DNA of 64,000 nucleotides, from assembly GCF_037038585.1 (NCBI RefSeq), contig NC_092556.1:386619-450618 (forward strand), in the 5' to 3' direction. Source of the stretch: Patagioenas fasciata (Eukaryota). The notes below the pieces were generated by a model, which saw only the letters and a list, made by a program, of their open reading frames with translations, made no database searches and was not told the origin of the DNA. The position numbers and the translations under genes were made by a program. Below are positions 7,805 through 57,697 of this stretch, in pieces (position 1 is the first letter of the stretch; every line of letters starts with the position of its first letter).

Positions 7805-7909
7805 TCATTCTCCCTCTTTGTCCTCGCCATGCGTTATCACGTAGCAGATGTTCTTGTAATCCACGTTGCCGGCCACGTCGGGGGGAAACGCCGCCCACAT
7901 GTTCTTGAT
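7805..7909 (-). CDS. MYLPF: MYLPF exon 7 ([34 protein letters not shown], stop)
   Basis: Acceptor cccccccccag|ATCAAGAAC. The stop codon TGA is at 7805-7807 on the minus strand. Confidence 0.9.
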
Positions 7910-10900
7910 CTGGGGGGGGGGACACCCCAAAATTGGTCAGTGGGGGACCCCAAAATACAAGGGGGGGGGTGCAATGTAGCATGGGGGGGATTTGGGGGGG
8001 ATTTGGGGGGGATTGGGGGGGATTTGGGGGGATTAGGGGGGGATTTGGGGGGTCAGCAAAGGGGGTTTGGGGGGAGCAGTGAGGGGGTATAGGGGGGGTT
8101 TTGGGGTCTCTATGGGGGGGTTTGGGGTCCCCATGGGGGGTTGGGGTCCCCAAGGGGGGTTTGGGGTCCCAAGGGGGGGTCCCAAGGGGGTTTGGGGTCC
8201 CTATGGGCAGTTTGGGGTCCGCATGGGGGGTTTGGGGTCCTCATGGGGGGTTTGGGGTCCCAAGGGGGGGTCCCAAGGGGGTTTGGGGTCCCTATGGGCA
8301 GTTTGGGGTCCCAAGGGGGTTTGGGGTCCGCATGGGGGGTTGGGGTCCCCAAGGGGGTTTGGGGTCCCAAGGGGGGTCCCAAGGGGGTTTGGGGTCCTCA
8401 TGGGGGGTTTGGGGTCCCCATGGGGGTTTGGGGTCCCCAGGGGGTTTGGGGTCCCCAAGGGGGTTTGGGGTCCTCATGGGGGGTTTGGGGTCCCATGGGG
8501 GGTTTGGGGTCCCCATGGGGGGTTTGGGGTCCCAAGGGGGGTTTGGGGTCCCCAAGGGGGTTTTGGGGTCCCCATGGGGGTTTGGGGTCCCCAGGGGGTT
8601 TGGGGTCCCCATGGGGGTTTGGGGTCCCCAGGGGGTTTGGGGTCCCAAGGGGGGTTTGGGGTCCCAAGGGGGTTTTGGGGTCCCCAAGGGGGTTTTGGGG
8701 TCCCCATGGGGGTTTGGGGTCCCCAGGGGGTTTGGGGTCCCAAGGGGGTTTGGGGTCCTCATGGGGGTTTGGGGTCCCCAAGGGGGTTTTGGGGTCCCCA
8801 AGGGGGTTTTGGGGTCCCCATGGGGGTTTGGGGTCCCCAGGGGGTTTGGGGTCCCAAGGGGGTTTGGGGTCCCCATGGGGGTTTGGGGTCCCAAGGGGGT
8901 TTGGGGTCCCCATGGGGGGTTTGGGGTCCTCATGGGGGGTTTGGGGTCCTCATGGGGGTTTGGGGTCCCCAAGGGGGTTTGGGGTCCCAAGGGGGGTCCC
9001 AAGGGGGTTTGGGGTCCCCATGGGGGTTTGGGGTCCTCATTGGGGGTTTGGGGTCCCCATGGGGGGTTTGGGGTCCTCATGGGGGGTTTGGGGTCCCAAG
9101 GGGGTTTGGGGTCCCAAGGGGGTTTTGGGGTCCCCATGGGGGTTTGGGGTCCTCATTGGGGGTTTGGGGTCCCCATGGGGGGTTTGGGGTCCCCAAGGGG
9201 GTTTGGGGTCCCAAGGGGGTTTGGGGTCCCCAAGGGGAGTTTGGGGTCCCCATGGGGGGTTTGGGGTCCTCATTGGGGGTTTGGGGTCCCCAAGGGGAGT
9301 TTGGGGTCCCAAGGGGGGTTTGGGGTCCCAAGGGGGTTTGGGGTCCCAAGGGGGTTTTGGGGTCCCCATGGGGGTTTGGGGTCCTCATGGGGGGTTTGGG
9401 GTCCCAAGGGGGTTTGGGGTCCCAAGGGGGTTTTGGGGTCCCCATGGGGGGTTTGGGGTCCCCATGGGGGTTTGGGGTCCTCATGGGGGGTTTGGGGTCC
9501 CAAGGGGGTTTGGGGTCCCCATGGGGGTTTGGGGTCCCCATGGGGGGTTTGGGGTCCCATGGGGGTTTGGGGTCCTCATGGGGGGTTTGGGGTCCCAAGG
9601 GGGTTTGGGGTCCCCATGGGGGTTTTGGGGGGTTCTGGGGGTTTTGGGGGTGGTTTTGGGGGGTTTTGGGGGGTCCCGGGGGGGTTTGGGGCTGATTTTG
9701 GGGTGATTTGGGGGGTTTTGGGGCTCTCACCTCCTCGGGGGTGAAGCGGTCGCACTGGGTGGTCAGGAGCTCCTCAAGGCTGGGGGGGCACAGTGACCCC
9801 AATGTCCCCATTGACCCCCACTGGCCCCCATTGGCCCCCATTGGCCTCCATTGACCCCCACTGGCCCCCATTGGCCCCCGTTGGCCCCCCATTGTCCTCA
9901 TTGGCCCCCATTGGCCCCCATTGGCCCCCCATTATCCCCATTGTCACCCCATCGGTCCCATTGCCCCCCATTGTCCCCCCATTGGCCCCATTGGCCCCCA
10001 CTGGCCCCCATTGGCCCCCATTGGCCCCCATTGTCACCCATTGTCCCCATTGTCCTCATTGGCCCCCATTGGCCCCCACTGGCCCCCATTGGCCCCCGTT
10101 GGCCCCCATTGTCACCCATTATCCCCATTGGCCCCCCATTGGCCCCATTGGCCCCCACTGGCCTCCATTGACCCCCATTGGCCCCCATTGGCACCATTGT
10201 CACCCATTGGCCCCATTGTCACCCATTGTCCCCATTGGTCCCCATTGGCCCCATTGTCACCCATTGTCCCCATTGTCCCCCCATTGTCCCCCATTGGCCG
10301 CCATTGCCCCCCATTGTCCCCCCATTGCCCCCCATTGTCACCCCATTGGCCCCCATTGGCTCCCATTGACCCCCATTGGCCCCCATTGGCCCCCCATTGT
10401 CCTCACTGTCCCCCATTGTCCCCATTGTCCCCATATCCCCCAATGTCCCCATATCCCCCAACACCCCCATTGTCCCCCCATGTCCCCCATGTCCCCCATG
10501 TCCCCAATGTCCCCATATCCCCCAACACCCCCATTGTCCCCCCATGTCCCCAATGTCCCCAATGTCCCCATTCCCCCCAACACCCCCATTGTCCCCCCAT
10601 GTCCCCCATGTCCCCCATGTCCCCAATGTCCCCAATGTCCCCATATCCCCCAACACCCCCATTGTCCCCCAATGTCCCCCATGTCCCCAATGTCCCCAAT
10701 GTCCCCATATCCCCCAACACCCCCATTGTCCCCCCATGTCCCCCATGTCCCCCATGTCCCCAACGTCCCCACTCACAAGCTCTTCTTGATGGAGCCCTTC
10801 CCGTCGGGGTCCAGCACCTTGAACGCCCCCATGATCACGTCCTCGGGGTCCGCGCCTGCCCCACGGGGTCCCCAAGGTCAAGGTCACGGCCCCAATGTCC

Positions 10901-13900
10901 CCAATGTCCCCCCATGTCCCCCAATGTCCCCCCATATCCCCCAATGTCCCCCCATGTCCCCCAATGTCCCCCCATATCCCCCAATGTCCCCCCAATGTCC
11001 CCAATGTGCCCCCATGTCCCTCATTGTCCCCATATCCCCAAATGTGTCCCCATGTCCCCCCATATCCCCACATCCCCCAATGTCCCCATGTCCCCCAATA
11101 TCCCCCTGTCCCCATATGTCCCATTGTCCCCATATCCCCCAATGTCCCCATTTTCCCCTCCATGTCCCCCATATCCCCCAATGTCCCCATTGCCCCCAAT
11201 GTCCCCATTGTCCCCATAGTCCCCCCATATCCCCCCATGTGCCCCCATTTATCCCCCCATATCCCCCAATGTCCCCATGTCCCCCATTGTCCTCATTGCC
11301 CCCAATGTCCCCATTGCCCCCAATGTCCCCATTGTCCCCCTATGCCCCCATAACCCCCATTGCCCCCAATGTCCCATTGTCCCCATGTCCCCCAATGTCC
11401 CCATGTCCCCCCATTATCCCCATACCCCCCACATCCCCCATATCCCCCAATGTCCCCATATCCCCCCATGTCCCCCATTGCCCCCCAATGTCCCCACGTC
11501 CCCCCATTATCCCCATGTCCCCCAATGTCCCCATGTCCCCCAATGTCCCCATGTCCCCCCATTATCCCCATATCCCCCAATGTCCCCATGTCCCCCAATG
11601 TCCCCAGATCCCCCCATTATCCCCATATCCCCCAATGTCCCCATGTCCCCCCATTATCCCCATATCCCCCAATGTCCCCATTGTCCCCCAATGTCCCCAG
11701 ATCCCCCCATTATCCCCATATCCCCCAATGTCCCCATTGTCCCCAATGCCCCCATTGTCCCCCTATCCCCCCATGTCCCCCCATTATCCCCCTGTCCCCC
11801 AATGTCCCCCTGTCCCCCAATGTCCCCATGTCCCCCAATGTCCCCCAATGTCCCCCAACGTCCCCAACGTCCCCACCCTTGAGCTTCTCCCCGAACATGG
11901 TGAGGAACACGGTGAAGTTGATGGGGCCGCTGGCCTCTTTGATCATGGCGTCCAGCTCCTCGTTCTTCACGTTCAGCCGGCCTATCAGAGACAGGGGGCG
12001 GGGCTTAGCGGGACACGCCCACCCCCAAACCCCGCCCCCTAGGCAATAAACCCCGCCCCTTACCATTCGGATTCCACACCCCCCCCTTGGCTCTATAGGC
12101 AATGGAATGGCCCTGGAGGCCACGCCCCCATTCACAAGCCACGCCCCCCTTTTAAACCCCCATTCCCTCCATTGGGTACCAAGGCCACGCCCCCTTTGTG
12201 CAAACCACGCCCCCTTTCCCAACCCCTATTGGCCCTGAGGCCACGCCCCCATTCTAAAGCCACGCCCCCAATCTTTAACCCCGCCTCCTTCTCCATAAGG
12301 CGCTAAGCCCCGCCCACCTTGCATAAGCGACGCCCCCCCCATTCTACCCAATTGGCTCTTGAGGCCACGCCCACATTTCCTCAAGCCACGCCCACATTTC
12401 CTCAAGCCACGCCCCTTTTCTAGACTCCGCCCCCTTCTCTATGAGGCGCTAAGCCACGCCCCCCTTTTCAATCTTCCATTTAATCCATTGGTTCTGGAAG
12501 CCACGCCCCCCCTTCAATCTCCCATTTACTCTACTGGCTGTGGAGGCCACGCCCCCTTTGCATAAGCCACGCCCCCTTTCAATATCCCATTTAATCTATT
12601 GGCTCTGGAGGCCACGCCCCCCACAAGCCCCACCCCTGCAAGCCGCTAAGCTCCGCCCCTTTGCCGCAAGCCACGCCCCCCCCCTTCCACCCCCCCAATT
12701 TACTCTATTGGCTCTGGAGGCCACGCCCACATTGCTCAGGCCACGCCCCCTCGGCAAACCCCACCCCCCCATTCATCCCTATGGCCCCATTGACCCCTCC
12801 ACCCCCCACAAGGCCACACCCATGCTCACTGAGGCCACACCCTCCAAGCCACGCCCACCTCCCCAAGCCACGCCCACCTCCCCCAAGCCACGCCCCCTCA
12901 CCCATGGCGGCGAAGGTCTCGCGCAGATCATCCTTATCAATGATCCCGTCCCGGTTCTGATCGATCACCGTGAACGCCTGCAGGGGGCGCGGGGGAGCAT
13001 GGGCCGCAGGCCACGCCCCCCGCCCCAAGCCACGCCCCCCCGCCCCAAGCCACGCCCCCCACCCCCCCCCCAAGCCTTCAAGGAGACATTGGAGCCGGCA
13101 ACAGGTGCTGGAAAGGACCCAGGCGTCCGGGGAAAGGGACCCAGGCGGCCGGGGGTTGGACCAAATAAGGGACCCAGGCGTCCGGGTGACCCCACCCCCC
13201 CCAAAAAAGGGACCCTGGAGTTCGGGGGTTGAACCAAAAAAGGACCCAGGCGTCCGGGGGGGTCTGATCAAGGGACCCAGGCGTCCGGGGAAAGGGACCC
13301 AGGCGTCCGGGGTGACCCCACCCCCCCAAAAAAGGGACCCTGGAGTTCGGGGGTTGAACCAAAAAAGGACCCAGGCGTCCGGGGTGACCCCTAAAAAGGG
13401 ACCCAGGCGTCCGGGGTGACCCCACCCCCCAAAAAAGGGACCCTGGAGTTCGGGGTTGAACCAAAAAAGGACCCAGGCATCCGGGGTGACCCCTAAAAAG
13501 GGACCCAGGCGTCCGGGGGGATCTGCCCGAGGGACCCAGGCGTCCGGGGGGGTCTGCCCAAGGGACCCAGGCGTCCGGGGGGGTCTGATCAAGGGACCCA
13601 GGCGTCCGGGGGGGTCTGATCAAGGGACCCAGGCGTCCGGGCAAAGGGACCCAGGCATCCGGGGTGACCCCTAAAAAGGGACCCAGGCGTCCGGGGGGGG
13701 TCTGCCCAAGGGACCCAGGCGTCCGGGGGGGTCTGCCCGAGGGACCCAGGCGTCCGGGGGGGTCTGCCCGAGGGACCCAGGCGTCCGGGGGGGTCTGATC
13801 AAGGGACCCAGGCGTCCGGGCAAAGGGACCCAGGCATCCGGGGTGACCCCTAAAAAGGGACCCAGGCGTCCGGGGGGGGTCTGCCCAAGGGACCCAGGCG

Positions 13901-16900
13901 TCCGGGGGGGGGTCTGAAAAAGGGACCCAGGCGTCCGGGGGGGTCTGCCCGAGGGACCCAGGCGTCCGGGGGGGGTCTGAAAAAGGGACCCAGGCGTCCG
14001 GGGGGGTCTGCCCGAGGGACCCAGGCATCCGGGGTTGCCCCCCCATTCCCCCCAAAAGGGACCCAGGCGTCCGGGGGGGTCTGCCCGAGGGACCCAGGCG
14101 TCCGGGGGGGTCTGCCCGAGGGACCCAGGCGTCCGGGGGGGTCTGCCCGAGGGACCCAGGCGTCCGGGGGGGTCTGATCAAGGGACCCAGGCGTCCGGGC
14201 AAAGGGACCCAGGCATCCGGGGTGACCCCTAAAAAGGGACCCAGGCGTCCGGGGGGGTCTGCCCGAGGGACCCAGGCGTCCGGGGGGGTCTGATCAAGGG
14301 ACCCAGGCGTCCGGGCAAAGGGACCCAGGCATCCGGGGTGACCCCTAAAAAGGGACCCAGGCGTCCGGGGGGGTCTGCCCAAGGGACCCAGGCGTCCGGG
14401 GGGGTCTGCCCGAGGGACCCAGGCGTCCGGGCGCCCCCACCTCCTTGAACTCCTGGATCTGGGTCTGGTCGAACATGGAGAAAACGTTGGAGCTGCCCTC
14501 GGCCGCTCGGCGCTTCGCCTTCTTGGGGGCCTGCGCGCAGATGGGGGGCAGGATGGGGGGTGGGTGTGGGGCAGGATGGGGGGGGATGTGGGGCAGGATG
14601 TGGGGGGGATGTGGGGGGGATGTGGGGCGGGTGTGGGGGGGTGTGGGGGGGGTGTGGGGCAGGATGGGGGGGGATGTGGGGCAGGATGGGGGGGGGTGTG
14701 GGGCTGGGTGTGGGGGGGGTGTGGGGCAGGATGTGGGGCAGGATGGGGGGCAGGATGGGGGGGATGTGGGGCAGGATGTGGGGCGGGCGTGGGGTGGGTG
14801 TGGGGCAGGATGGGGGGCGGGTGTGGGGTACAAATGGGGCAGGATGTGGGGGGGATGTGGGGCAGGATGTGGGGCAGGATGGGGGGGGGATGTGGGGGGG
14901 ATGTGGGGGGGATGTGGGGCAGGATGGGGGGGGATGTGGGGGGGGATGTGGGGTACAAATGGGGTGGATGTGGGGCAGGATGGGGGGCGGGTGTGGGGCA
15001 GGATGGGGGGGGGATGTGGGGTGGGATGTGGGGGGGATGTGGGGCAGGATGGGGGGGGATGTGGGGTACAAATGGGGCAGGATGTGGGGGGGATGTGGGG
15101 CGGGTGTGGGGGGGATGTGGGGGGGATGTGGGGCAGGATGTGGGGGGGATGTGGGGCGGGTGTGGGGCGGGATGGGGGGGGATGTGGGGCGGGTGTGGGG
15201 CGGGTGTGGGGGGGATGTGGGGGGGATGTGGGGCAGGATGTGGGGGGGATGTGGGGCGGGTGTGGGGCGGGATGGGGGGGGATGTGGGGTACAAATGGGG
15301 CAGGATGTGGGGGGGATGTGGGGGGGATGTGGGGGGGATGTGGGGCGGGTGTGGGGCAGGATGTGGGGGGGATGTGGGGCAGGATGGGGGGCGGGTGTGG
15401 GGGGGATGTGGGGGGGATGTGGGGTGGGATGTGGGGCAGGATGTGGGGCAGGATGGGGGGCGGGTGTGGGGCAGGATGGGGTGGGGATGTGGGGTGGGAT
15501 GTGGGGGGGATGTGGGGGGGATGTGGGGCAGGATGGGGGGGGATGTGGGGGGGATGTGGGGGGGATGTGGGGCAGGATGGGGGGGGATGTGGGGTACAAA
15601 TGGGGCAGGATGTGGGGGGGATGTGGGGCGGGATTTGGGGGGAGATGTGGGGGGGATGTGGGGGGGATGTGGGGGGGATGTGGGGTACAAATAGGGTGGG
15701 ATTTGGGGTACAAATGGGGCAGGTGTGGGGGGGATGTGGGGCAGGATCTGGGGGGGATGTGGGGTGGGATTTGGGGTACAAATGGGGCGGATGTGGGGTG
15801 GATTGGGGGGGATGTGGGGCAGGGATGTGGGGCAGATGGGGAGCAGGGGGTCCCTGGGGGTCCCTATGGGGTCTGGGGGGGATCTGGGGGGGATCTGGGG
15901 GTCCCTATGGGGTCTGGGGGTCCCTATGGGGTTCCCTATGGGGTCTGGGGGTCCCTATGGGGTCTGGGGGTCCCTATGGGGTCTGGGGGGTCCCTGGGGG
16001 TCCCTATGGGGTCTGGGGGTCCCTGGGGGTCCCTATGGGGTCTGGGGGTCCCTATGGGGTCAGGGGGTCCCTGGGGGTCCCTATGGGGTCTGGGGGTCCC
16101 TATGGGGTCTGGGGGTCCCTGGGGGTCTGGGGGGGATGTGGGGGTCCCTATGGGGTCTGGGGGTCCCTGGGGGTCCCTATGGGGTCTGGGGGTCCCTGGG
16201 GGTCTGGGGGGGATGTGGGGGTCCCTATGGGGTCTGGGGGTCCCTGGGGGTCCCTATGGGGTCTGGGGGTCCCTATGGGGTCTGGGGGGGATGTGGGGGT
16301 CCCTATGGGGTCTGGGGGTCCCTGGGGGTCCCTATGGGGTCTGGGGGTCCCTATGGGGTCAGGGGGTCCCTGGGGGTCCCTATGGGGTCTGGGGGTCCCT
16401 ATGGGGTCTGGGGGTCCCTGGGGGTCTGGGGGGGATGTGGGGGTCCCTATGGGGTCTGGGGGTCCCTGGGGGTCCCTATGGGGTCTGGGGGTCCCTGGGG
16501 GTCTGGGGGGGATGTGGGGGTCCCTATGGGGTCTGGGGGTCCCTGGGGGTCCCTATGGGGTCTGGGGGTCCCTATGGGGTCTGGGGGGGATGTGGGGGTC
16601 CCTATGGGGTCTGGGGGTCCCTGGGGGTCCCTATGGGGTCTGGGGGTCCCTATGGGGTCTGGGGGGGATGTGGGGGTCCCTATGGGGTCTGGGGGTCCCT
16701 GGGGGTCCCTATGGGGTCAGGGGGTCCCTGGGGGTCCCTATGGGGTCTGGGGGTCCCTATGGGGTCTGGGGGTCCCTGGGGGTCCCTATGGGGTCTGGGG
16801 GGTCCCTATGGGGTTCCCTATGGGGTCTGGGGGTCCCTATGGGGTCAGGGGGTCCCTATGGGGTCTGGGGGTCCCTGGGGGTCCCTATGGGGTCAGGGGG

Positions 16901-18164
16901 TCCCTGGGGGTCCCTATGGGGTCTGGGGGTCCCTATGGGGTCAGGGGGTCCCTGGGGGTCCCTATGGGGTCTGGGGGTCCCTATGGGGTCAGGGGGTCCC
17001 TGGGGGTCCCTATGGGGTCTGGGGGTCCCTATGGGGTCTGGGGGTCCCTGGGGGTCTGGGGGGGATGTGGGGGTCCCTATGGGGTCTGGGGGTCCCTGGG
17101 GGTCCCTATGGGGTCTGGGGGTCCCTATGGGGTCTGGGGGGGATGTGGGGGTCCCTATGGGGTCTGGGGGTCCCTGGGGGTCCCTATGGGGTCTGGGGGT
17201 CCCTATGGGGTCTGGGGGGGATGTGGGGGTCCCTATGGGGTCTGGGGGTCCCTGGGGGTCCCTATGGGGTCTGGGGGTCCCTATGGGGTCTGGGGGGGAT
17301 GTGGGGGTCCCTATGGGGTCTGGGGGTCCCTGGGGGTCCCTATGGGGTCTGGGGGTCCCTATGGGGTCTGGGGGGGATGTGGGGGTCCCTATGGGGTCTG
17401 GGGGTCCCTGGGGGTCCCTATGGGGTCTGGGGGTCCCTATGGGGTCTGGGGGGGATGTGGGGGTCCCTATGGGGTCTGGGGGTCCCTATGGGGTCTGGGG
17501 GTCCCCATGGGGTCTGGGGGGGATGTGGGGGTCCCTATGGGGTCTGGGGGTCCCTATGGGGTCTGGGGGTCCCTGGGGTTCCCTATGGGGTCTGGGGGGG
17601 ATCTGGGGGTCCCTATGGGGTTTGGGGGTCCCTATGGGGTCTGGGGGTCCCTGGGGGTCCCTATGGGGTCTGGGGGTCCCTGGGGTTCCCTATGGGGTCT
17701 GGGGGTCCCTATGGGGTTCCCTATGGGGTCTGGGGGTCCCTATGGGGTTCCCTATGGGGTCTGGGGGGGATCTGGGGGATCTGAAAAGGGACCCAGGCGT
17801 CCGGGCTGCCCCCCCCCCATCCCCCCCAAAAGGGACCCAGGCGTCCGGGGGTGTCCTTCCCCAATTTGGGGTTAATTGGGGGTTAATTGGGGGTCCAGGG
17901 GGGTTAATTGGGGGTAATTGGGGGGTTAATTGAGGGTTAATTGGGGGTAATTGGGGGTAATTGGGGGGTTAATTGAGGGTTAATTGGGGGTAATTGGGGG
18001 TCCAGGGGGGTTAATTGGGGGTAATTGGGGGGTCCAGGGGGGTTAATTGGGGGTCCAGGGGGGTTAATTGGGGGTAATTGGGGGGTCCAGGGGGGTTAAT
18101 CGTGGGTCCAGGGGGGTTAATTAGGAGCTAATGAGGGGTTAATTAACCGGGGTCCCCTCACCAT
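7805..18164 (-). CDS. MYLPF: Fast skeletal muscle myosin regulatory light chain 2 (MLC2f), complete CDS in 7 exons, 168 aa
   Basis: Spliced minus-strand exons: 18162-18164 (ATG only), 14441-14530, 12902-12977, 11877-11981, 10777-10855, 9731-9779, 7805-7909 (includes stop). Translation: [168 protein letters not shown]. This matches my recall of vertebrate MYLPF, and the chicken protein in particular. All junctions are GT..AG with pyrimidine-rich acceptors, and exon phases are consistent. Confidence 0.9.
8070..9720 (+). repeat. G-rich satellite, about 20-22 bp GGGGTTTGGGGTCCCCATGG, about 75 copies (MYLPF intron 6)
   Basis: Direct reading. Confidence 0.9.
9731..9779 (-). CDS. MYLPF: MYLPF exon 6 ([17 protein letters not shown])
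   Basis: Acceptor gtgcccccccag|CCTTGAG and donor GAGGAG|gtgagagc. 49 bp. Confidence 0.9.
9790..11870 (+). repeat. 9-bp periodic C-rich satellite (CCCCATTGG / CCCCATGTC / CCCAATGTC variants) filling MYLPF introns 4 and 5, interrupted by exon 5
   Basis: Direct reading. The minus strand reads GGCCAATGGG repeatedly. Confidence 0.9.
10777..10855 (-). CDS. MYLPF: MYLPF exon 5 ([26 protein letters not shown])
   Basis: Acceptor cgtggggcag|GCGCGG and donor AAGAGCTT|gtgagtgg. 79 bp. Confidence 0.9.
11877..11981 (-). CDS. MYLPF: MYLPF exon 4 ([35 protein letters not shown])
   Basis: Acceptor tctgatag|GCCGGC and donor CTCAAGG|gtgggga. 105 bp. Confidence 0.9.
12060..12900 (+). repeat. About 60 bp repeats built on CCACGCCCC cores (MYLPF intron 3)
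   Basis: Direct reading. Confidence 0.8.
12902..12977 (-). CDS. MYLPF: MYLPF exon 3 ([26 protein letters not shown])
   Basis: Acceptor ccccctgcag|GCGTTC and donor GCCATGG|gtgaggg. This is the EF-hand 1 region. Confidence 0.9.
13080..14440 (+). repeat. Satellite about 30 bp GGGACCCAGGCGTCCGGGGGGGTCTGCCCGA (MYLPF intron 2)
   Basis: Direct reading. Confidence 0.9.
14441..14530 (-). CDS. MYLPF: MYLPF exon 2 ([30 protein letters not shown])
   Basis: Acceptor ..ctgcgcgcag|GCCCCC and donor AAGGAG|gtgggggc on the minus strand. 90 bp, phase 0 to 0. Confidence 0.9.
14560..15800 (+). repeat. Satellite GGGATGTGGGGCAGGATGTGG (8-11 bp GATGTGGGG core) in MYLPF intron 1
   Basis: Direct reading. The same core recurs at 62520-64000. 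Confidence 0.9.
15840..17790 (+). repeat. Satellite about 24-30 bp GGGGTCCCTATGGGGTCTGGGGGTCCCTGG (MYLPF intron 1)
   Basis: Direct reading. Confidence 0.9.
17860..18130 (+). repeat. Satellite GGGGTTAATTGGGGGTAATTG
   Basis: Direct reading. Confidence 0.85.
18162..18164 (-). CDS. MYLPF: MYLPF exon 1 coding part (initiator ATG only, then GTGAGG donor)
   Basis: Minus strand reads gcggccATG|gtgagggg. Exon 2 begins with the codon after Met (APKKAKRR), so exon 1 must end exactly at the ATG. A TATA-like TTTAAAA lies 43 nt upstream. Confidence 0.55.
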
Positions 18165-18245
18165 GGCCGCTCTCGGGGTCTCTGGGGGTCCCGGCCCCTC
18201 CGGGGGTTTTAAAGCCTCTTGGCCCCGCCCCCCCCCCGGACGCCT
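18165..18245 (-). promoter_or_regulatory. MYLPF: MYLPF core promoter: TATA/MEF2-like TTTAAAA (18207-18213 plus-strand coordinates) about 43 nt upstream of the ATG, with a GC box (ggggcgggg) further upstream
   Basis: Minus strand reads gggggcggggccaagaggcTTTAAAAcccccggaggggccgggacccccagagaccccgagagcggccATG|gtgagg. The placement assumes an exon 1 that ends at the ATG. Confidence 0.45.
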
Positions 18246-20000: not shown

Positions 20001-20339
20001 AACCCCACATTGCCCCATTTTACACCACAATTTACCCCAACTTCCCGCCATTTTCCGCTCTGGCCCCGCCCCTTCCCGCTCCCCCACTCGCTCCCCATTG
20101 GCTCACGGCACCGCTCGCCCCGCCCACTCGCTCCCCATTGACCCCATCGCCTCGCCCCGCCCACTCGCTCCCCATTGGCTCACGGCGCCGTCCGCCCCGC
20201 CCACTCGCTCCTCATTGACCCCCATCGCCTCGCCCCGCCCACTCGCTCCCCATTGGCTCACGGCGCCGCTCGCCCCGCCCACTCGCTCCCCATTGGTTCT
20301 CCACGTCCTCTCCCTCCCCTCCTCCCATTGATTGAGGCG

Positions 20340-21840: not shown

Positions 21841-21850
21841 GATTTTGGGG

Positions 21851-30480: not shown

Positions 30481-30499
30481 AGGGGCGGAATGGGGGGGT

Positions 30500-44491: not shown

Positions 44492-44639
44492 GTGAGTCCA
44501 GGAGGGTCCCAAAAACCCCCAAAATGGGTTAAAACGCCCCAAAAAGGCCCCAAAATGTGGTTGAGACCCCAAAGAAACCTCTGGGAGGGATTAAAGGGTC
44601 GGGGGCTCTTTAAGAAACTGGTGGGTGGGGCTTAGGGGG

Positions 44640-47039: not shown

Positions 47040-48100
47040 TTTGGAAATTGGGAAATTGGGAAAATGGGAAAATGTTGAAAATTTCCCAGGATTTTGGAAA
47101 TTTGGAGAATGGAAAAATTGTGGAGATTTCCCAAGATTTTGGAGATTTGGAAATTTTGAGTTTTCCCAAGATTTTGGAAATTTGGAAATTTGGAAAGTTT
47201 GAATTTTCCCAAGATTTTGGAAATTTGGAATTTTCCCAAGATTCTGAAAATTTGGAAATTTGTAAAGTTTGAATTTTCCCAAGATTTTGAAAATCTGGAA
47301 ATTTTGAATTTTGCCAAAATTTTGGAAATTTGGAAAGTTTGAATTTTCCAAGGTGTTGAAAATGTGAACATTTTGGAAATTTGGGAGCTTTCCAAGGTTT
47401 TGAGAATTTGAAACTTTTGAATTTGTCCAAAAGTTCAGGAATTTTGAAAATTTTCACAGGTCAAGATTTGGAAGAATTTGAAAAATTTTAAAATTGAAAA
47501 CTTTTGAACATTTTTAGAATTGAAAATCTTGTAAATTTTGAGGTTTTTTAGAATTGGAAATGGTGGAAATTTGGAGAATTGAAAATTTGGAAGATGTCGG
47601 AAATTTTTAGAATTGGAAATTTTGCAGATTTGAAGAATTTTAGAATTGGAAAGTTTGAAAAAGTTTTAGAATTGAAAATTTGGAAGATTTTTAGGATCAA
47701 AAATCTTGAAAATTTTTAGACTTTGAAATTTTGAGAATTTTGAAAACTTTTAGAGCTGAAAATGTTGGAAATTTTTAAAATGAAGAATTTTGAATAACGA
47801 AAATTTTTAGAATTGAAAAATCGAAGCATTTTTAGAATTTTTAAAATTTAAAAATCAAACTCTTGGCAAATTTTTAAATTTTGGAAAATTTTTAAAATTC
47901 AAAAATAACCTTGAAAATGTGAGAAATTTCAACATTTTTTAAATTTCAAATGGAAATTTTGGAAAATTTTGACCGGCTTGAGATTTTTAAAATTTAAAAA
48001 TTGCGATTTTTAAAAGTTTTGTATTTTGGGGAAATTTTTAACATTTGAAATTTTGAAATTTTCAAACTTGAACAAATGGAAATGTAAAGAATTTAAAAAT
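47040..48100 (+). repeat. AT-rich satellite (GGAAATTTGGAAATTTTGAATTTTCCCAAGATTTTGG and degenerate GAATTTTAGAATTGGAAA units), a compositional outlier
   Basis: Direct reading. Confidence 0.85.
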
Positions 48101-50039: not shown

Positions 50040-50088
50040 ATGGGGGGGAAGGGGGAGAACGTCCTGCTGTTCGCGCCCAACGTCATCG
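50040..50088 (+). CDS. CDIPT: CDIPT exon 1 (MGGKGENVLLFAPNVIG)
   Basis: ggggccATGG start, then ATCG|gtaacg. A GC-box and E-box promoter lies upstream. Confidence 0.85.
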
Positions 50089-53000
50089 GTAACGGGGGGA
50101 CCGGGGGACTGGGGGGACTGGGGAGCGATTTGGGGTGACTGGGATGGACTGGGAGGGACTGGGGAGCGATTTGGGGTGACTGGGAGGGACTGGGGGGCGA
50201 TTTGGGGCGACTGGGATGGATGGGGAGGGACTGGGGGGCGACTGGGAGGGACTGGGAGGGATGCGGGGGGAACTGGGAGCGATTGGGAAGGACTGGGAGT
50301 GCTGGGATGGACTGGGGGGACTGGGAGCGACTGGGGGGCGATTTGGGGCGACTGGGATAAACTGGGAAGGGACTGGGGGGGACTGGGAGGGATGGGGGGG
50401 AACTGGGAGCGATTGGGAGGGACTGGGAGTGCTGGGATGGACTGGGGGGAACTGGGAGGGACTGGGAAGGGGTTGGGGGTGACTGGGATAAACTGGGGGG
50501 GCGCTGGGATGAACTGGGAGGGACTGGGGGGCACTGGGAAGGGATTGGGGGCACTGGGAGGGAACTGGGGAGGACTGGGATGTATTGGGAGGAACTGGGG
50601 GGACTGGGGGCACTGGGATGAACTGGGTGGACTGGGAAGCGATTTGGGGTGACTGGGAGGGCCTGAGAAGGGACTGGGAGGGATGGGGGGGGCACTGGGA
50701 GGGACTGGGAAAGGGTTGGGGGTGACTGGGGTAAACTGGGGGGGCACTGGGATGAACTGGGAGGGACTGGGGGGCACTGGGAAGCCTCTAAGAGTGGGTT
50801 TGGGGGTCTCTGTGCACAGGGGGTGCTCGGGGGGGGTTCTGGGTGACCCCCAGGGCCCTTGGGGAGCTGAAACGACCCATACTGGTCCATACTGGTTTAT
50901 ACTGGTTTATACTGGAAATGCCTCTAAGAGTGGATTTGGGGGTTCCTGTGCATAGGGGGTGCTTGGGGGGGGTTCTGGGTGACCCCCAGGGCCCTTGTGG
51001 AGCTGAAACGACCCATACTGGTCCATACTGGTCCATGCTGGTTTATACTGGAAACGCCTCTAAGAGCGGGTTTGGGGGTCTCTGTGCACAGGGGGTGCTC
51101 GGGGGGTCCCTGCTGACCCCCCCGCCCCTCCCCCCCCCCCAGGCTACGCCCGCGTGGCGCTGGCGGCCGCCTCGTTCTGGCTGATGCCGTCGCGCCCCGG
51201 CCCCGCGGCCGCGCTCTACGGGGCCAGCGCCGCTCTGGACGCCGTGGACGGCGCCGTGGCCCGCAGGCTCCACCAGGGTGGGCGGGGCTTGGGGGGGCGG
51301 GGCCTGGGGGCGGGGAGTTTGGGGGGCGGGGCTGATGGGGTGGGGGTGGGGTAGGTTGGGTGGATGGGGGGAGGATGGGGCATGGGGAGGTGGAGGGGGG
51401 GCGTGGTTTAGGAGGGAGGGGGGTGTGGTTTAGAGGGGGTGTGGTTTAGGTGGAGGGGGTGTGGATTAGAGGGGGTGTGGTTTAGGTGGGAGGGGGTGTG
51501 GTTTAGGAGGGAGGGGGGTGTGGTTTAGGTTGGAGGGGGGTGTGGTTTAGGTGGGGGGTGCGGTTTAGGTTGGAGGGGGTGTGGTTTAGGTGGGAGGGGG
51601 CGTGGTTTAGAGGGGGAGTGGTTTACAGGGGGTGTGGTTTAGGTGGGAGGGGGAGTGGCTTGGAGGGGGAGTGGCCTGAGGGGGTGGGGATGCAATGGGG
51701 CGGGGCCTCGGGGCTGGGGGAGGGGTAACGGGGGTGTATAGGGGTGGGGGGGGACATAGGGAGGTGGGAGGGGGCGTGGTTTAGGTGGGGAGGGGTGGGG
51801 CTTTTGGGGGTGGGGATTGGGGGGCGGGGTTTCCGGGGGGCGGGGCCTTGGGGGTGGGGGAGTGGTAACTGCGATGTATAGGGTGGGGAGGGGGCGTGGT
51901 TTAGAGGGGGTGTGGTTTAGGTGGAGGGGGTGTGGTTTAGAGGGGGTGTGGTTTAGGTGGGAGGGGGCGTGGTTTAGGTTGGAGGGGGTGTGGTTTAGGT
52001 GGGAGGGGGCGTGGTTTAGGTGGGAGGGGGCGTGGTTTAGAGGGGGAGTGGTTTATGTGTATTGGGTGTGGTTTAGAGGGGGTGTGGTTTAGAGGGGGTG
52101 TGGTTTAGAGGGGGTGTGGTTTAGAGGGGGCGTGGTTTAGAGGGGGTTGTGGTTTAGAGGGGGCGTGGTTTAGGTGGGAGGGGGCGTGGCTTGGAGGAGT
52201 CGAGGCCACGAGGGGGCAGGTGAAATGACCTATACTGGTTTATACTGGTCCATATTGGTTTATACTGGTCCATACTGGTTTATACTGGGAATGGCATTAT
52301 GGGGGTTTTCTTGGGCAAGGGGGAGCCAGGGGGTCACTGGGGGGTCCCCTAGGACCCTTGAGGAGGTGAAATGACCGATACTGGTTTATACTGGTCCATA
52401 CTGGTTTATACTGGTTTCTGCTGGTTTGAAGGCCCTTAGGGGGTGTCTATGGGGGGTTGGTTCCGGGGGTCACCCGGGGGCCCCCCCGCTGTCCCCGCCC
52501 CCCCAGGGACCCGTTTTGGCGCCATGCTGGACATGCTGACCGACCGGCTGAGCTCCATGTGCCTATTGGTCAACCTGGCGCTGCTCTACCCGGCAACCGC
52601 CGCCCTGTTCCAGCTCAGCATGGCGCTGGACATCGCCAGCCATTGGCTGCACCTGCACTGGTGGGCGGGGCCGGCGGGGGGCGGGGCCCGGCCAGAAGGG
52701 GCGGGGGCAGAGGGGGTGGGGATAAAGGGGGGGGCATAGAGGGGGCGGAGCTAAACGGGGTGGGGGTAAGAGGGTGGGGGTAAGGGGGCGGAGCTAAAGG
52801 GGTGGGGATAGAGGGGGCGGAGCTAAAGGGGTGGAGGTATGGGGGCGGAGCTAAAGGGGTGGGGATAGAGGGGGCGGAGCTAAAGGGCTGAGGGGTGGGG
52901 ACAAAGGGGGTGGGGATAAAGGAGGCGGAGCTTGCAAGAGGGGGTGGGGATAAAGGGGGTGGGGCTAAAGGAGAGAGGTGAAGGGGGCGGTGCTAAAGGG

Positions 53001-56000
53001 GGTGGGGATGAAGAGGGTGGGGCTAAAAGGGGGTGGGGCTAAAGGGGTGGAGCTAAAGGCAGTGGGAATAAAAGGGGTGGAGCTAAGGGGGGCGGGGATA
53101 AAGGGGGTGGGGTTAGAAGGGGCGGGGATAGAGGAGGTGGAGCTAAAAGGGGTTGGGAAGAAGGGGTGGAGCTAAAGGGGCGGAGCTTGGAGGGGATGGG
53201 CGGGGCTAAGGGGGTGTGGTCGGGGGGTGAACTGGGGGGTGCTGGGAAGGCCCAGCTGGGGTCTATGGGGGGGGGGGTGGGCGAAGGGGCGTGGCCGGTG
53301 GGCGTGTCCCCCGTGACCCCGCCCCCTTTCCCCTCCCCCAGCACCACCCTGGAGGGCGGAGCCTCCCACAAGAACGTGGGGGGGGAGGGGCACTGGCTGC
53401 TGCGCCTCTACTACACACACAAGGTGGGGGAGGGGCCAAGGGGGAGGGGCCAAGGGGTGGGGGAGGGGTCATGGGGTTGGGGGAGGGGCCAAGGGGGAGG
53501 GGTCATGTGGTAGGGGGAGGGGTCAGGGGTTTGGGGTGGGGTTGGGGGTGGAGTCATGGATTTGGGGGTGTGGTCAGGGGTTTGGGGGTGGGGTGATGGA
53601 TTTGGGGGTGGGGTCATGGATTTGGGGGTGTGGTCAGGGGTTTGGGGGCGGGGTGATGGATTTGGGGGTGGGGTCAGGGATTTGGGGGTGGGGTCAGAGG
53701 GGTGGGGTGGGGTCATGGGGCGTGGCCAATGTAGGAGGCGGGGTCATTATTTGGGGGCGGGGCCAGGGATTTGGGGGTGTGGTCAGTGTAGGGGTGGAGT
53801 CATTTGGGGGTGGGGGGGCGTGGTCAGTGTGGGGGTGGAGTCAGGGTGGGGTCAGTGTATGGGGACGGGGTCATTATTGGGGGCGGGGCCGTGGGGTTGT
53901 GGGCGGGGCCACGGGGTTGGGGTGGGGTCAGGCGGCTGTGGGCGGGGCCGGGGGCGTGTCCAGCTCAGGGGGCGTGTCGGCGCTGTCCCCGCCCCCAGCC
54001 GGTGCTGTTCGTGGTCTGTGCTGGGAACGAAGCGTTTTACTGCGCGCTCTACCTGCTCCGCTTCGGCGACGGGCCCCGCGGTGAGGCGCTGGGCACACGG
54101 GGCACAGACTGGGCACAGACTGGGTACACTGGGTACAGACTGGTTAGACTGGGTACAGACTGGTCAGACTGGGTACGGACTGGTCAGACTGGGTACAGAC
54201 TGGTTAGATTGGGTACAGACTGGTCAGACTGGGTACAGACTGGTCAGACTGGGTACGGACTGGTCAGACTGGGTACGGACTGGTTAGACTGGGTACAGAC
54301 TGGTTAGACTGGGTACGGACTGGTTAGACTGGGTACGGACTGGTCAGACTGGGTACGGACTGGTCAGACTGGGTACAGACTGGTCAGACTGGGTACGGAC
54401 TGGTCAGACTGGGTACGGACTGGTCAGACTGGGTACGGACTGGTCAGACTGGGTACGGACTGGTCAGACTGGTTACAGACTGGTCAGACTGGGTACAGAC
54501 TGGTCAGACTGGGTACAGACTGGTCAGACTGGGTACAGACTGGTCAGACTGGGTACGGACTGGTCAGACTGGGTACGGACTGGTCAGACTGGGTACAGAC
54601 TGGTTAGATTGGGTACAGACTGGTCAGACTGGGTACAGACTGGTTAGACTGGGTACGGACTGGTCAGACTGGGTACAGACTGGTCAGACTGGGTACGGAC
54701 TGGTCAGACTGGGTACAGACTGGTCAGACTGGGTACAGACTGGTCAGACTGGGCACAGACTGGTCAGACTGGGTACAGACTGGTCAGACTGGGTACGGAC
54801 TGGTCAGATTGGGTACGGACTGGTCAGACTGGGTACAGACTGGTCAGACTGGGTACAGACTGGTCAGACTGGGTACGGACTGGTCAGACTGGGTACGGAC
54901 TGGTCAGACTGGGTACGGACTGGTCAGACTGGGTACAGACTGGTCAGACTGGGTACAGACTGGTCAGACTGGGTACGGACTGGTCAGACTGGGTACGGAC
55001 TGGTCAGACTGGGTACAGACTGGTCAGACTGGGTACAGACTGGTCAGACTGGGCACAGACTGGTCAGACTGGGTACAGACTGGTTAGATTGGGTACAGAC
55101 TGGTCAGACTGGGTACGGACTGGTCAGACTGGGTACAGACTGGTTAGATTGGGTACAGACTGGTCAGACTGGGTACGGACTGGTCAGACTGGGTACAGAC
55201 TGGTCAGACTGGGTACAGACTGGTCAGACTGGGTACAGACTGGTCAGACTGGGTACAGACTGGTCAGACTGGGTACGGACTGGTCAGACTGGGTACAGAC
55301 TGGTCAGACTGGGTACAGACTGGTTAGACTGGGTACAGACTGGTCAGACTGGGTACGGACTGGTCAGACTGGGTACAGACTGGTCAGACTGGGCACAGAC
55401 TGGTTAGATTGGGTACAGACTGGTTAGATTGGGTACAGACTGGTCAGACTGGGTACAGACTGGTTACAGACTGGTTAGACTGGTTACAGACTGGTTACAG
55501 ACTGGTTACACTGGTTACAGACTGGTTACAGACTGGTTACAGACTGGTTAGACTGGTTACACTGGTTACAGACTGGTTACAGACTGGTTAGACTGGTTAC
55601 ACTGGTTACAGACTGGTTAGACTGGTTACAGACTGGTTAGACTGGTTACAGACTGGTTACAGACTGGTTACACTGGTTACAGACTGGTTACAGACTGGTT
55701 AGACTGGTTACACTGGGTACAGACTGGTTACAGACTGGTTACAGACTGATTACACTGGTTACACTGGTTACAGATTGGTCAGACTGGTTACACTGGTTAC
55801 ACTGGTTACACTGGTTACACACTGGTTACACTGGGGAGAGAGTGGTCAGACTGGTTACAGACTGGTCACAGACTGGTTACACTGGTCAGACTGGTCACAG
55901 ACTGGTTACACTGGTCAGACTGGTTACAGACTGGTTACACTGGTTACAGACTGGTTACACTGGTTACAGACTGGTTACAGACTGGTTACACTGGTTACAG

Positions 56001-57697
56001 GCTGGTTAAACTGGTTACAGACTGGTTACACTGGTTACAGGCTGGTTAAACTGGTTACAGACTGCTCAGACTGGTTACAGACCGGTTACACTGGTTACAG
56101 ACTGGTTACACTGGTTACACTGGTTACACTGGTTACACTGGTTACAGACTGGTCAGACTGGTTACAGACTGGTTAGACGACTGGTTACACTGGTTACAGA
56201 CTGGTTACAGACTGGTTACACTGGTTACAGACTGGTCAGACTGGTCAGACTGGTTACACTGGTTACAGACTGGTCAGACTGGTCAGACTGGTTACAGACT
56301 GGTTGCACTGGTTACACACTGGTTACACTGGTTACAGACTGGTTAGACTGGTCAGACTGGTCAGACTGGTTACACACTGGTTACACTGGTTACAGACTGG
56401 TCAGACTGGTTACACTGGTTACAGACTGGCTACACTGCGGAGAGACTGGTTATACTGGTTAGAGACTGGATATACCAGTTATGGACTGGTCAGACTGGTT
56501 ACAGACTGGTTAGACTGGAGAGAGACTGGTTAGAGACTGGGGAGAGACTGGTTAGACTGGTTAGAGACTGGGGAGAGACTGGTTAGACTGGTTAGAGACT
56601 GGATAGACCAGTTACAGACCGGTTAAACTGGTTACAGACTGGTTAGAGACTGGGGAGAGACTGGTTAGACTGGTTAGAGACTGGATATACCAGTTACGGA
56701 CTGGTTAGACTGGTTACAGACTGGTTAGACTGGAGAGAGACTGGTTAGAGACTGGATATACCAGTTACGGACTGGTTAGACTGGTTACAGACTGGTTAGA
56801 GACTGGATAGACCAGTTACAGACTGGTTAGACTGGTTAGAGAGACTGGTTATAGCCATTAGAGACTGGTTAGCCTGGTTATACCAGTTAGAGACCAGTTA
56901 GAGCCTCATTAGACTGGTTAGAGCCTCATTAGACTGGTTAGAGACTGGGGAAAGAGACCGGTTATGATACTGGTTATACTGGTTAGAGAGACTGGTTAGA
57001 CTGGTTAGCGAGATTGGTTAGACTGGGGAGACTGGTCAGACTGGGGAGTTACACTGGTTATACTGGGAACACTGGTTATACTGGGGGTCTGGTTATACTG
57101 GGGAGGTTGGTTATACTGGGAGACTGGGGGGAACTACGGGGAACTGGTTTATACTGGAGGGACTGGGAGGGATTGGGGAGCACTGGGATGAACTGGGAGG
57201 GGATTGGGAAGGACTGGGGGGGTCACTGGGATGAACTGGGGGTCACTGGTCGGTACTGGTCTGTACTGGTCCATACTGGTCTGGACTGGTCCGTACTGGT
57301 CCCAGGGGGCCCCGGGCTGTTCAGCCTCCTCCTCTGGGTCGGGACTGGGGGGCACTGGTCTGAACTGGTCCGTACTGGTCTGAACTGGTCCATACTGGTC
57401 CATACTGGTCTGAACTGGTCCGTACTGGTCTGAACTGGTCCGTACTGGTCTGAACTGGTCCGTACTGGTCCATACTGGTCTGAACTGGTCCATACTGGTC
57501 TGAACTGGTCCGTCCTGGTCCCAGTGCTCCCGGGGGGCCCCGGGCTGTTCCGCCTCCTCCTCTGGGTCGCGACCCCCATGGCCGCCCTCAAGTTCCTGCT
57601 GAACCTGCTGCAGCTGGGCGGAGCCGCCGCGCGATTGGCCGCCCTGGACGCCGCCGCCAGGCGATTGGACGGGGCGCCCCGCCCCAAAACCCAGTGA
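50040..57697 (+). CDS. CDIPT: CDP-diacylglycerol--inositol 3-phosphatidyltransferase (phosphatidylinositol synthase), complete CDS in 6 exons, 224 aa
   Basis: Plus-strand exons: 50040-50088, 51143-51277, 52507-52660, 53342-53423, 53999-54080, 57525-57697 (includes stop). Translation: MGGKGENVLLFAPNVIGYARVALAAASFWLMPSRPGPAAALYGASAALDAVDGAVARRLHQGTRFGAMLDMLTDRLSSMCLLVNLALLYPATAALFQLSMALDIASHWLHLHCTTLEGGASHKNVGGEGHWLLRLYYTHKPVLFVVCAGNEAFYCALYLLRFGDGPRGVLPGGPGLFRLLLWVATPMAALKFLLNLLQLGGAAARLAALDAAARRLDGAPRPKTQ*. It is collinear with my recall of human CDIPT (..FLFVPNLIGYARI...DAFDGHAARALNQGTRFGAMLDMLTDRCSTMCLLVNLALLYP...SHWLHLH...LRIYYTSRPALFTLCAGNELFYCLLYL..) and carries the CDP-alcohol phosphatidyltransferase D-G-x-x-A-R...G-x-x-x-D-x-x-x-D signature. 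All junctions are GT..AG. Confidence 0.9.
50090..50790 (+). repeat. 7-bp based satellite GACTGGGAGGGACTGGGGGGC (CDIPT intron 1)
   Basis: Direct reading. Confidence 0.85.
51143..51277 (+). CDS. CDIPT: CDIPT exon 2
   Basis: Acceptor cccccccccag|GCTACGCC and donor CACCAGG|gtgggcgg. Confidence 0.88.
51290..52170 (+). repeat. About 20 bp satellite GGTGTGGTTTAGGTGGGAGGG (CDIPT intron 2)
   Basis: Direct reading. Confidence 0.85.
52507..52660 (+). CDS. CDIPT: CDIPT exon 3
   Basis: Acceptor cgcccccccag|GGACCCG and donor GCACTG|gtgggcgg. Contains the GAMLDMLTDR active-site block. Confidence 0.9.
52690..53230 (+). repeat. About 30 bp satellite GGCGGAGCTAAAGGGGTGGGGATAAAGG (CDIPT intron 3)
   Basis: Direct reading. 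Confidence 0.85.
53342..53423 (+). CDS. CDIPT: CDIPT exon 4
   Basis: Acceptor cctcccccag|CACCACC and donor CACAAG|gtgggggag. Confidence 0.88.
53999..54080 (+). CDS. CDIPT: CDIPT exon 5
   Basis: Acceptor cgcccccag|CCGGTGCTG and donor CCCCGCG|gtgaggcg. Confidence 0.88.
54090..57060 (+). repeat. 3 kb satellite in CDIPT intron 5: 22-bp GACTGGTCAGACTGGGTACAGAC in about 60 copies (54090-55450), grading into ACTGGTTACAGACTGGTTAC variants (55450-57060)
   Basis: Direct reading. Confidence 0.9.
57525..57697 (+). CDS. CDIPT: CDIPT exon 6 (terminal; ..LWVATPMAALKFLLNLL.., stop TGA)
   Basis: Acceptor cgtcctggtcccag|TGCTCCC. Frame is continuous from exon 5. The stop is at 57695-57697. Confidence 0.82.

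Follow-up and report, generated by a model that had tools for sequence, protein, structure and literature searches.

The subject of this analysis is a 64-kb stretch of the Patagioenas fasciata genome (RefSeq assembly GCF_037038585.1, contig NC_092556.1, positions 386,619 to 450,618), hereafter called the window, in which four genes of the human 16p11.2 region, MYLPF (minus strand), PAGR1 (minus), TAOK2 (plus) and CDIPT (plus), are contiguous within positions 7805-57697. Both limits of this block are stop codons, 7805 being the last base of the MYLPF stop and 57697 the last base of the CDIPT stop. A previous, sequence-only reading of the same DNA had placed MYLPF, PAGR1, a TAOK2-like gene and CDIPT in these positions and on these strands, which the spliced models and the end coordinates bear out; its figure of 58 kb was wrong, as the four genes span 49.9 kb. 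The window very probably belongs to one of the dot microchromosomes of the pigeon, equivalent to chicken chromosome 38 (chr38) and to human 16p11.2, in which four bird orthologs have become adjacent through gene loss, rearrangement and the small size of the genes themselves. Public pigeon assemblies already include annotations of these genes, and the locus has the features typical of avian dot chromosomes; the synteny finding is correct but ordinary. It is of little import as synteny and serves rather as a worked example of avian dot chromosomes, which are known from published work to be compact, rearranged, rich in GC and laden with repeats.

In human, PAGR1 (+), MVP (+), CDIPT (-), SEZ6L2 (-), ASPHD1 (+), KCTD13 (-), TMEM219 (+) and TAOK2 (+) follow each other, the PAGR1-to-TAOK2 interval measuring about 170 kb; MYLPF (+) is found some 0.4 Mb away and SPN also belongs to 16p11.2. 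The same genes are linked in the pigeon, where a CD43/SPN-like gene may be present in the window as well. The differences concern distance, since the four genes fit into 49.9 kb in the pigeon whereas human needs about 170 kb and a further gap of 0.4 Mb, content, as five intervening human genes are not in the pigeon block, and arrangement. PAGR1 and TAOK2 share a strand in human and CDIPT occupies the opposite one, whereas in the pigeon PAGR1 and TAOK2 are head-to-head and CDIPT follows TAOK2 on the same strand. The contiguity, with an order and an orientation unlike those of human, is thereby borne out. The human arrangement cannot be converted into that of the pigeon by deletions alone.

Complete models were obtained for all four genes, with GT-AG borders at every intron, and the four families are backed by Pfam, by PDB matches and by the nearest proteins named at NCBI. 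MYLPF, the fast skeletal myosin regulatory light chain gene, is composed of seven exons between 7805 and 18164 on the minus strand (18162-18164, restricted to the ATG, 14441-14530, 12902-12977, 11877-11981, 10777-10855, 9731-9779 and 7805-7909). Every coding exon was located by tblastn and the product is 168 residues long. Its top PDB match is structure 2MYS, of which the chicken skeletal regulatory light chain is near-identical to it (345 bits, E 7e-103), cardiac MYL2 and smooth-muscle MYL9 ranking below the skeletal chain, and Pfam EF-hand domains are present; the product is thereby identified as a fast skeletal regulatory light chain of the EF-hand family. PAGR1 (PAXIP1-associated glutamate-rich protein 1) is found at 21851-28838 on the minus strand, in three exons (28333-28838, 23701-23789 and 21851-22011) which sum to 756 nt, that is 251 residues and a stop. 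The PTIP-binding domain PAXIP1_C (PF15364) is matched with an E value of 7e-20 over profile positions 1-131 of 132. Outside two splice junctions, the model equals the NCBI PAGR1 protein of P. fasciata residue for residue, N-terminal repeats included (99% identity with the junctions as initially drawn), and the residues at the corrected junctions agree with the same protein when compared by eye; the gene is identified as PAGR1.

TAOK2 is made of 12 coding exons on the plus strand at 32941-47078 (32941-33051, 33134-33205, 33295-33396, 34372-34417, 34493-34589, 36389-36502, 37711-37802, 40038-40131, 41093-41174, 43097-43249, 44303-44491 and 45303-47078). The model is open over 975 residues with GT-AG at 11 of 11 introns, matches Pfam Pkinase with an E value of 2e-58 and displays 87% identity to the NCBI protein TAO2 of Caloenas nicobarica. 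The bird origin proposed in the sequence-only reading is supported by this identity and by the match of PAGR1 to the Patagioenas protein, which points to the band-tailed pigeon or a species very near it. CDIPT (phosphatidylinositol synthase) occupies 50040-57697 on the plus strand in six exons (50040-50088, 51143-51277, 52507-52660, 53342-53423, 53999-54080 and 57525-57697). Its 224-residue product matches CDP-OH_P_transf (PF01066, E 6e-15) and retains intact the motif DAVDGAVARRLHQGTRFGAMLDMLTD, which corresponds to the D-x2-D-G-x2-A-R-x8-G-x3-D-x3-D signature of CDP-alcohol phosphatidyltransferases; judged by its sequence, the gene is CDIPT.

The sequence-only reading had seen no sign of MVP, SEZ6L2, ASPHD1, KCTD13 or TMEM219, and none of the five was found in the window by 11-mer islands and Pfam, nor MVP, KCTD13 or TMEM219 by tblastn. 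Two estimates of unique sequence were made: self-BLAST leaves 7.8 kb, and an 11-mer uniqueness scan yields 84 islands totaling 7.6 kb, nearly all of them exons. The masks produced by Tandem Repeats Finder (TRF) and by self-BLAST miss a real exon and the 11-mer uniqueness was therefore used instead. Once exons had been assigned, 42 islands amounting to 3,051 bp were left unexplained, none of them longer than about 160 bp. Six-frame translations of the unexplained, flanking and intergenic islands gave no Pfam match (Vault, CUB, Sushi, BTB and Asp_Arg_Hydrox included) besides a Fibrinogen_C domain on the right flank. As this domain was detected from isolated exons, the same procedure is sensitive enough. 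Probes for MVP, KCTD13, TMEM219 and HIRIP3 produced no tblastn match at E<=1 in the unmasked window. Between TAO2 and CDIPT, the annotations of Caloenas, Indicator and Pezoporus likewise contain no gene. Most of these absences find an explanation in the literature. KCTD13, SEZ6L2, CORO1A, DOC2A, BCL7C and ORAI3 are ohnologs assigned to chicken chr38 and missing in all birds (Hron et al. 2026, PMC12954441), and TMEM219 is mammal-specific (Blaker-Lee et al. 2012, PMC3484866). Part of the compaction of the block is thus due to documented gene loss.

The arrangement was then compared with annotated loci of other birds. In Caloenas nicobarica (CM069743.1, 0.77 Mb), PAGR1 with PAXIP1_C (-), TAO2 with Pkinase (+) and CDIPT with CDP-OH_P_transf (+) are annotated in this order, and in two assemblies of Columba livia PAGR1 is head-to-head with the kinase. 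The honeyguide Indicator indicator displays an SSF/SLC5A2-like gene, a TAO2-like gene (+) and CDIPT (+), and the parrot Pezoporus a trypsin-like gene, a TAO2-like gene (+), CDIPT (+) and a Fibrinogen_C gene (-). The parrot Fibrinogen_C exon shares 85% amino-acid identity with that of the window and occupies the same place after CDIPT. The parrot and honeyguide arrangements indicate that the TAOK2-CDIPT order, with or without the fibrinogen-domain gene, is old within Neoaves, the PAGR1/TAOK2 pair being common to pigeons. The gene downstream of PAGR1 differs among the three pigeons: it is MYLPF in the window, INO80E in Caloenas (locus positions 15627-20870, without Pfam label, the sequence reading EQECFQDELRRAQRKLLKVSRDK ... 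GDDALDGDDELVIDIPE) and an ARMC5-like gene in Columba livia (locus positions 17641-18872). All three are 16p11.2 genes, which looks like continuing local reshuffling in one tiny chromosome. P. fasciata PAGR1 is carried by a 2.11-Mb sequence, and the Caloenas and Columba copies by chromosome-level records of 0.77 and 0.49 Mb, respectively. TUFM, ATP2A1, SPNS1 and SLC5A2 have been placed on chicken chr38, which, like the window, has a 16p11.2 gene content with KCTD13 and SEZ6L2 absent (PMC12954441). TAOK2, CDIPT, MYLPF and PAGR1 are mentioned neither in the text and supplements of Lovell et al. 2014 nor in the main text of Hron et al. 2026, and a literature search retrieved no paper on avian 16p11.2 synteny.

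The nearest solved structure of the kinase is the rat TAO2 kinase domain, 1U5Q, with 458 bits against 438 for TAO3, a small margin, and its kinase domain is 65-68% identical to TAOK2, 59-61% to TAOK1 and 54-60% to TAOK3. It accordingly reads as a STE20/TAO-type kinase domain closest to TAOK2, by that same small margin. The catalytic motifs GxGxxG, VAIK, HRD, DFG and APE are intact. The 15-residue peptide quoted in the sequence-only reading is indeed encoded by exon 3, and its mammalian counterpart in the 1U5Q alignment is EVRFLQKLRHPNTIQY. The last exon belongs to a single open reading frame (ORF), 45234-47078, which encodes successively a short conserved segment, a proline-rich array and a hydrophobic tail. 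This tail, of the TAOK2-alpha type, extends over 46194-46938 on the plus strand, with a conserved end (EPPSRIPRP...KPWR and stop, 46798-46938) in the +1 frame. Compared by tblastn with human TAOK2 residues 914-1163, it gives an E value of 1e-20 and 36% identity over 263 residues; the human sequence was checked against 1U5Q for its kinase part. The tail is kept in Caloenas (61%), Indicator, the parrot and a lizard. The kinase is linked to the 16p11.2 genes PAGR1 and/or CDIPT both in the window and in other birds.

Three other explanations of the block were weighed against the preferred one. The sequence-only reading had itself named what would speak against it, namely intervening genes present as diverged exons hidden inside the arrays. 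One genuine precedent exists in the window, as the MYLPF exon 10777-10855 is truly buried in an array and escaped two masks. The 11-mer scan nevertheless recovers this very exon and leaves no more than 3.05 kb in islands of 160 bp or less, whereas MVP alone requires about 2.7 kb of coding sequence. With no Pfam domain or MVP, KCTD13 or TMEM219 tblastn match, no additional gene between TAO2 and CDIPT in Caloenas, Indicator or the parrot, and KCTD13 and SEZ6L2 published as lost (PMC12954441), the survival of the intervening genes in the arrays is hardly credible. The pattern of missing neighbors observed here reflects real gene loss rather than hidden exons. The adjacencies, especially that of MYLPF and PAGR1, could also be an artefact of assembly, in which arrays shared between loci led to a wrong junction, or collapsed and took genes with them. 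Tandem repeats make up 84% of the window, a 19-20-bp unit (GGGACCCAGGMGT...) recurs 181 times at no fewer than nine sites, including 18.3-20.0 kb between MYLPF and PAGR1, and the downstream neighbor of PAGR1 differs in all three pigeons. The window, on the other hand, holds no N, and the PAGR1, TAOK2, CDIPT and Fibrinogen_C adjacencies recur in independent assemblies of other species. MYLPF itself is complete, with seven exons and a promoter-like 5' end, 3.7 kb from the 3' end of PAGR1, and the differing neighbors are all 16p11.2 genes, as local reshuffling would give. An artefact is on balance quite unlikely.

The last alternative concerns the kinase, which could be a bird-specific, truncated TAOK2-like paralog, the canonical TAOK2 with its coiled coil residing elsewhere and being usually unassembled. 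A canonical, slowly evolving TAOK2 is present in Calidris pugnax at 156-16256 of KQ482927.1, a 24.7-kb GC-rich scaffold; its exons include those of the coiled coil as well as a block duplicated internally, and it is about 92% identical to human in a kinase exon, whereas no coiled coil is detectable at the window, Caloenas and Indicator loci. The remaining bird TAO2 and TAO2-like proteins that were seen are all short and evolve fast. A neighbor-joining tree also puts the bird TAO2 and TAO2-like proteins outside the gnathostome TAOK1/2/3 group. This tree was discarded as evidence on orthology, since the bird proteins group together on long branches and the Calidris model, which is chimeric, is misaligned. 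Against a paralog stand the linkage of the kinase to PAGR1 and/or CDIPT in four bird orders, the retention of the TAOK2-alpha-specific hydrophobic tail with its ...PWR end, as in lizard, and an identity higher to TAOK2 than to TAOK1 or TAOK3, with TAO2 as best PDB match. Moreover, the bird copies are only 63-68% identical to each other, as distant as they are from human, and this star-like divergence fits a lineage-wise acceleration of one ortholog combined with long-branch attraction; the zebra finch, chicken and Caloenas proteins are named TAO2 by NCBI. A paralog is thus unlikely, if slightly less so than an assembly artefact. The Calidris gene may represent this ortholog evolving slowly in its own lineage, as favored by the star-like divergence, or a second copy.

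Some observations weigh against the preferred reading, that of four orthologs brought together on a dot chromosome. The coiled-coil TAOK2 of Calidris pugnax fits uneasily with the simple orthology of a fast, coil-less gene. In neither Caloenas nor Columba livia was MYLPF found in the 10 kb that follow PAGR1; the MYLPF-PAGR1 junction is either peculiar to one lineage or a product of the assembly. The lizard TAOK2 locus contains no neighbor gene within 10 kb and does not reveal the ancestral sauropsid order, so that the rearrangements may have taken place in either lineage. Finally, the gene conversion invoked below is deduced from base composition only.

The sequence-only reading had also described a strong GC-biased amino-acid replacement in the kinase, expected for bird microchromosome genes, and this bias proved quantitatively real. 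The comparison was restricted to the 302 kinase-domain sites at which lizard TAOK2 is identical to human, 97 of which differ in the window. At these changed sites, the GARP residues (Gly, Ala, Arg, Pro) show 48 gains for 5 losses and the FYMINK residues (Phe, Tyr, Met, Ile, Asn, Lys) 36 losses for a single gain. The GARP share reaches 38.6% in the window kinase, whereas TAOK2 of lizard and human, like TAOK1 and TAOK3 of birds, stays at 22-24%, and the GC content at third codon positions (GC3) of the four genes ranges from 0.86 to 0.92. In the kinase region, lizard and human TAOK2 are 93% identical, whereas identity falls to 64-68% when a bird protein is compared with either of them and to 63-68% between birds; the pigeon kinase domain stands at 65% to mammalian and lizard TAOK2. 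With Caloenas as reference, the kinase has a ratio of nonsynonymous to synonymous substitution rates (dN/dS) of 0.24 and the TAOK2 tail one of 0.40; CDIPT stands at 0.33 and PAGR1 at 0.46. The link drawn with bird microchromosome genes is in agreement with the published pattern of GC-rich "hidden" avian genes, which are refractory to sequencing, undergo accelerated protein evolution, and likewise combine a high GC3, a rise in GARP, a fall in FYMINK and fast protein divergence; one of the clusters described contains ALDOA, also located on human chromosome 16 (Huttener et al. 2021, PMC8449477). MYLPF departs from this pattern, as its GC3 is equally high (0.90) while its protein is essentially unchanged. 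The acceleration is therefore gene-specific and not regional.

The sequence of events that would have produced the block can be summarized as follows. The human genes which separate the four would be absent from birds, KCTD13 and SEZ6L2 having been lost, TMEM219 being mammal-specific, and MVP and ASPHD1 being located elsewhere or lost. At least two small intrachromosomal rearrangements, which we infer, would have altered order and orientation relative to mammals, and the small size of the genes themselves would have contributed to their proximity. Nearly all the non-coding DNA would have been replaced by locally expanded tandem arrays, which sometimes copied the end of an exon along with its splice site. 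Such GC-rich avian genes are commonly explained by GC-biased gene conversion. Judging from composition, it may have acted on the genes of the window, and its sustained action would account for the elevated GC3 as well as for amino-acid changes that run in one direction. Purifying selection would have preserved MYLPF with hardly any change; the other three genes, TAOK2, CDIPT and PAGR1, evolve fast (dN/dS 0.24-0.46 against Caloenas).

The mammalian and lizard TAOK2 (PSK1-alpha; 1U5Q) and the pigeon gene have in common a STE20-type kinase, a Ser-rich acidic stretch located after it and a long last exon encoding a hydrophobic tail that ends in ...PWR. They differ in the central region, where the coiled coil present in the former (human residues ~430-900) is undetectable in the pigeon and a Pro-rich array is found in its place. 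This array (PIDPIG...) extends in frame over 45455-46100 of the last exon, on the plus strand and within its single ORF, at the position of the human and lizard coiled coil. A profile hidden Markov model of the coiled coil was built from human, lizard and Calidris TAOK2 together with TAOK1 and TAOK3 sequences. It matches the lizard (1e-40) and Calidris (1e-45) loci and gives no match at E<=10 in the window or in the Caloenas and Indicator loci, which reach CDIPT; human TAOK2 residues 400-740 find no tblastn match in the window either. A further difference concerns the last 45 conserved codons, which are offset by one frame across a G-run in both pigeons (46740-46938 in the window, ~22900-23150 in the Caloenas locus) whereas they are in frame in Indicator and lizard. 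This offset could be a true frameshift shared by the pigeons or a systematic error in the length of the G-run.

A joint proposal, the chances of which we would put a little short of even, is that TAOK2 was rebuilt in pigeons and honeyguides, an in-frame Pro array having replaced the coiled coil, and that arrays enter coding exons in frame. The rebuilt protein may have kept an intact kinase, the acidic stretch and the membrane-type tail, the canonical form persisting in at least one shorebird; the rebuilding would probably extend to other bird groups, whose annotated products are short. Should this be the case, birds would offer a natural TAOK2 variant devoid of coiled coil, TAOK2 being of interest for the human 16p11.2 neurodevelopmental copy-number variant. 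Intron stuttering would also be able to create new protein repeats rapidly, in a species-specific manner within one bird family. Of all the results of this analysis, only the TAOK2 devoid of coiled coil and the arrays that run in frame deserve a follow-up. On a practical level, the TAO2 proteins annotated in pigeon assemblies range from 286 to 805 residues, and bird products annotated from such loci may be truncated or include array-encoded segments.

The repeats themselves are the dominant component of the window, which has a GC content of 51-76% and no N. TRF arrays cover a fraction of 0.84 of the window, for the most part in introns; the homologous loci reach 0.78 (Caloenas), 0.81 (Indicator) and 0.62 (parrot), against 0.016 for the lizard TAOK2 locus. 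Most long introns of the window consist of arrays for 83-100% of their length, compared to per-chromosome median intron coverages of 7-93% on the chicken dot chromosomes, where this phenomenon has been termed "sequence stuttering", exon stuttering included (Hron et al. 2026, PMC12954441). As on the chicken dot chromosomes (PMC12954441), exon ends and splice sites are copied into introns, here in PAGR1, CDIPT and the fibrinogen-domain gene. Two differences are apparent. The chicken repeats stay out of exons and leave coding regions intact (PMC12954441), whereas those of the window run in frame through the first exon of PAGR1, the last one of TAOK2 and the ectodomain of a CD43-like ORF; and stuttering is local in chicken (PMC12954441), whereas one unit of the window is dispersed over at least nine sites.

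This dispersed unit of 19-20 bp (GGGACCCAGGMGTYCGGG) is present 181 times at nine sites or more, on both strands, in introns as well as in intergenic regions, the sites including 456-1303, 5750-5891, 13167-14431, 18316-20005 and 40145-41080. It is also found in the Caloenas and Columba loci and is absent from those of Indicator, Calidris and lizard. It behaves as a dispersed pigeon satellite and not as a local stutter. The arrays are furthermore strongly strand-asymmetric, with a GC skew of about +0.6 at 14000-18000 and about -0.8 at 24000-28000, and are made up of G-runs or C-runs (GGGGN units) which, from their composition, could form G-quadruplexes. The G-rich strand of the arrays does not obviously track gene orientation.

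The MYLPF exon at 10777-10855 on the minus strand is buried in an array of 10-bp units extending over 9797-11874, and the unit GGGGACATTG borders both splice sites of this fully conserved exon. Hidden by the TRF mask as well as by the self-BLAST uniqueness mask, the exon was recovered by tblastn and by 11-mer uniqueness; on such chromosomes, genuine exons can thus be swallowed by repeat masking. Further upstream, a TATA-like CTTTAAAA is located about 45 nt 5' of MYLPF exon 1 (ATG|GTGAGG). A small unique island at 18750-18930 on the minus strand, some 0.6 kb upstream of exon 1, contains GTAAAAATAGC, which reads as a near-consensus MEF2-like site; together with the TATA-like element it would fit a muscle promoter.

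In PAGR1, in-frame arrays of 21-bp units occupy 28548-28767 (-) of coding exon 1, as seen by TRF and translation, and encode APWDRKG/D six times, GNEGANC three times and WDKEGAD twice. These 7-residue repeats are included in the NCBI P. fasciata protein and are absent from the PAGR1 proteins of Columba livia and Caloenas. A motif search also revealed, in intron 2, five exact copies (22059-22323, minus strand) of the exon-3 acceptor followed by the first 15 nt of the exon. The motif has seven matches in all for none expected by chance, the genuine site being 21997-22017 and a copy with one mismatch 22867-22887, and TRF reports a 62-bp array around the acceptor (21985-22350). The intronic copies are potential decoy acceptors. 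The head-to-head intergenic region of PAGR1 and TAOK2 (28839-32940) contains a unique GC-rich island at 30006-30481 which is probably a shared promoter of the two genes or the 5' untranslated region of TAOK2. No Pfam domain was detected in any frame of the unique islands of this region, and an Rfam scan of the whole 64-kb window returned nothing at gathering thresholds.

The start of CDIPT exon 6 is copied upstream, as detected by blastn. On the right flank, a gene for a FIBCD1/ficolin-like protein with a fibrinogen C-domain (exon fragments matching Pfam Fibrinogen_C with an E value of 2e-40) is convergent with CDIPT at 59437-62480 on the minus strand, with at least two exons visible, and continues beyond. 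Three copies of the 5' part of its last exon, acceptor included, are found on the same strand in the upstream intron (60206-60332, 60837-60973 and 61676-61812; blastn identity of 96-99% to 59663-59800).

On the left flank, the single-exon ORF 1298-2896 (-) is tentatively considered as leukosialin (SPN/CD43)-like from its domain architecture, a gene that was called mammal-only in 2012 (PMC3484866). The features predicted are a signal peptide, an ectodomain of 10-residue repeats and, beyond a transmembrane helix, a tail on the cytoplasmic side in which the motifs WAGPxxLPE and AMEEL are found. No Pfam match was obtained for this ORF. BLASTP against human SPN gives an E value of 6e-5 over the short WAGP motif only, and the homologs of the tail are unnamed short proteins (best E 4e-13). 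The ectodomain comprises about 40 ten-residue repeats derived from a 30-bp array at 1605-2810, and the reading frame extends into the next array, with no stop until 668.

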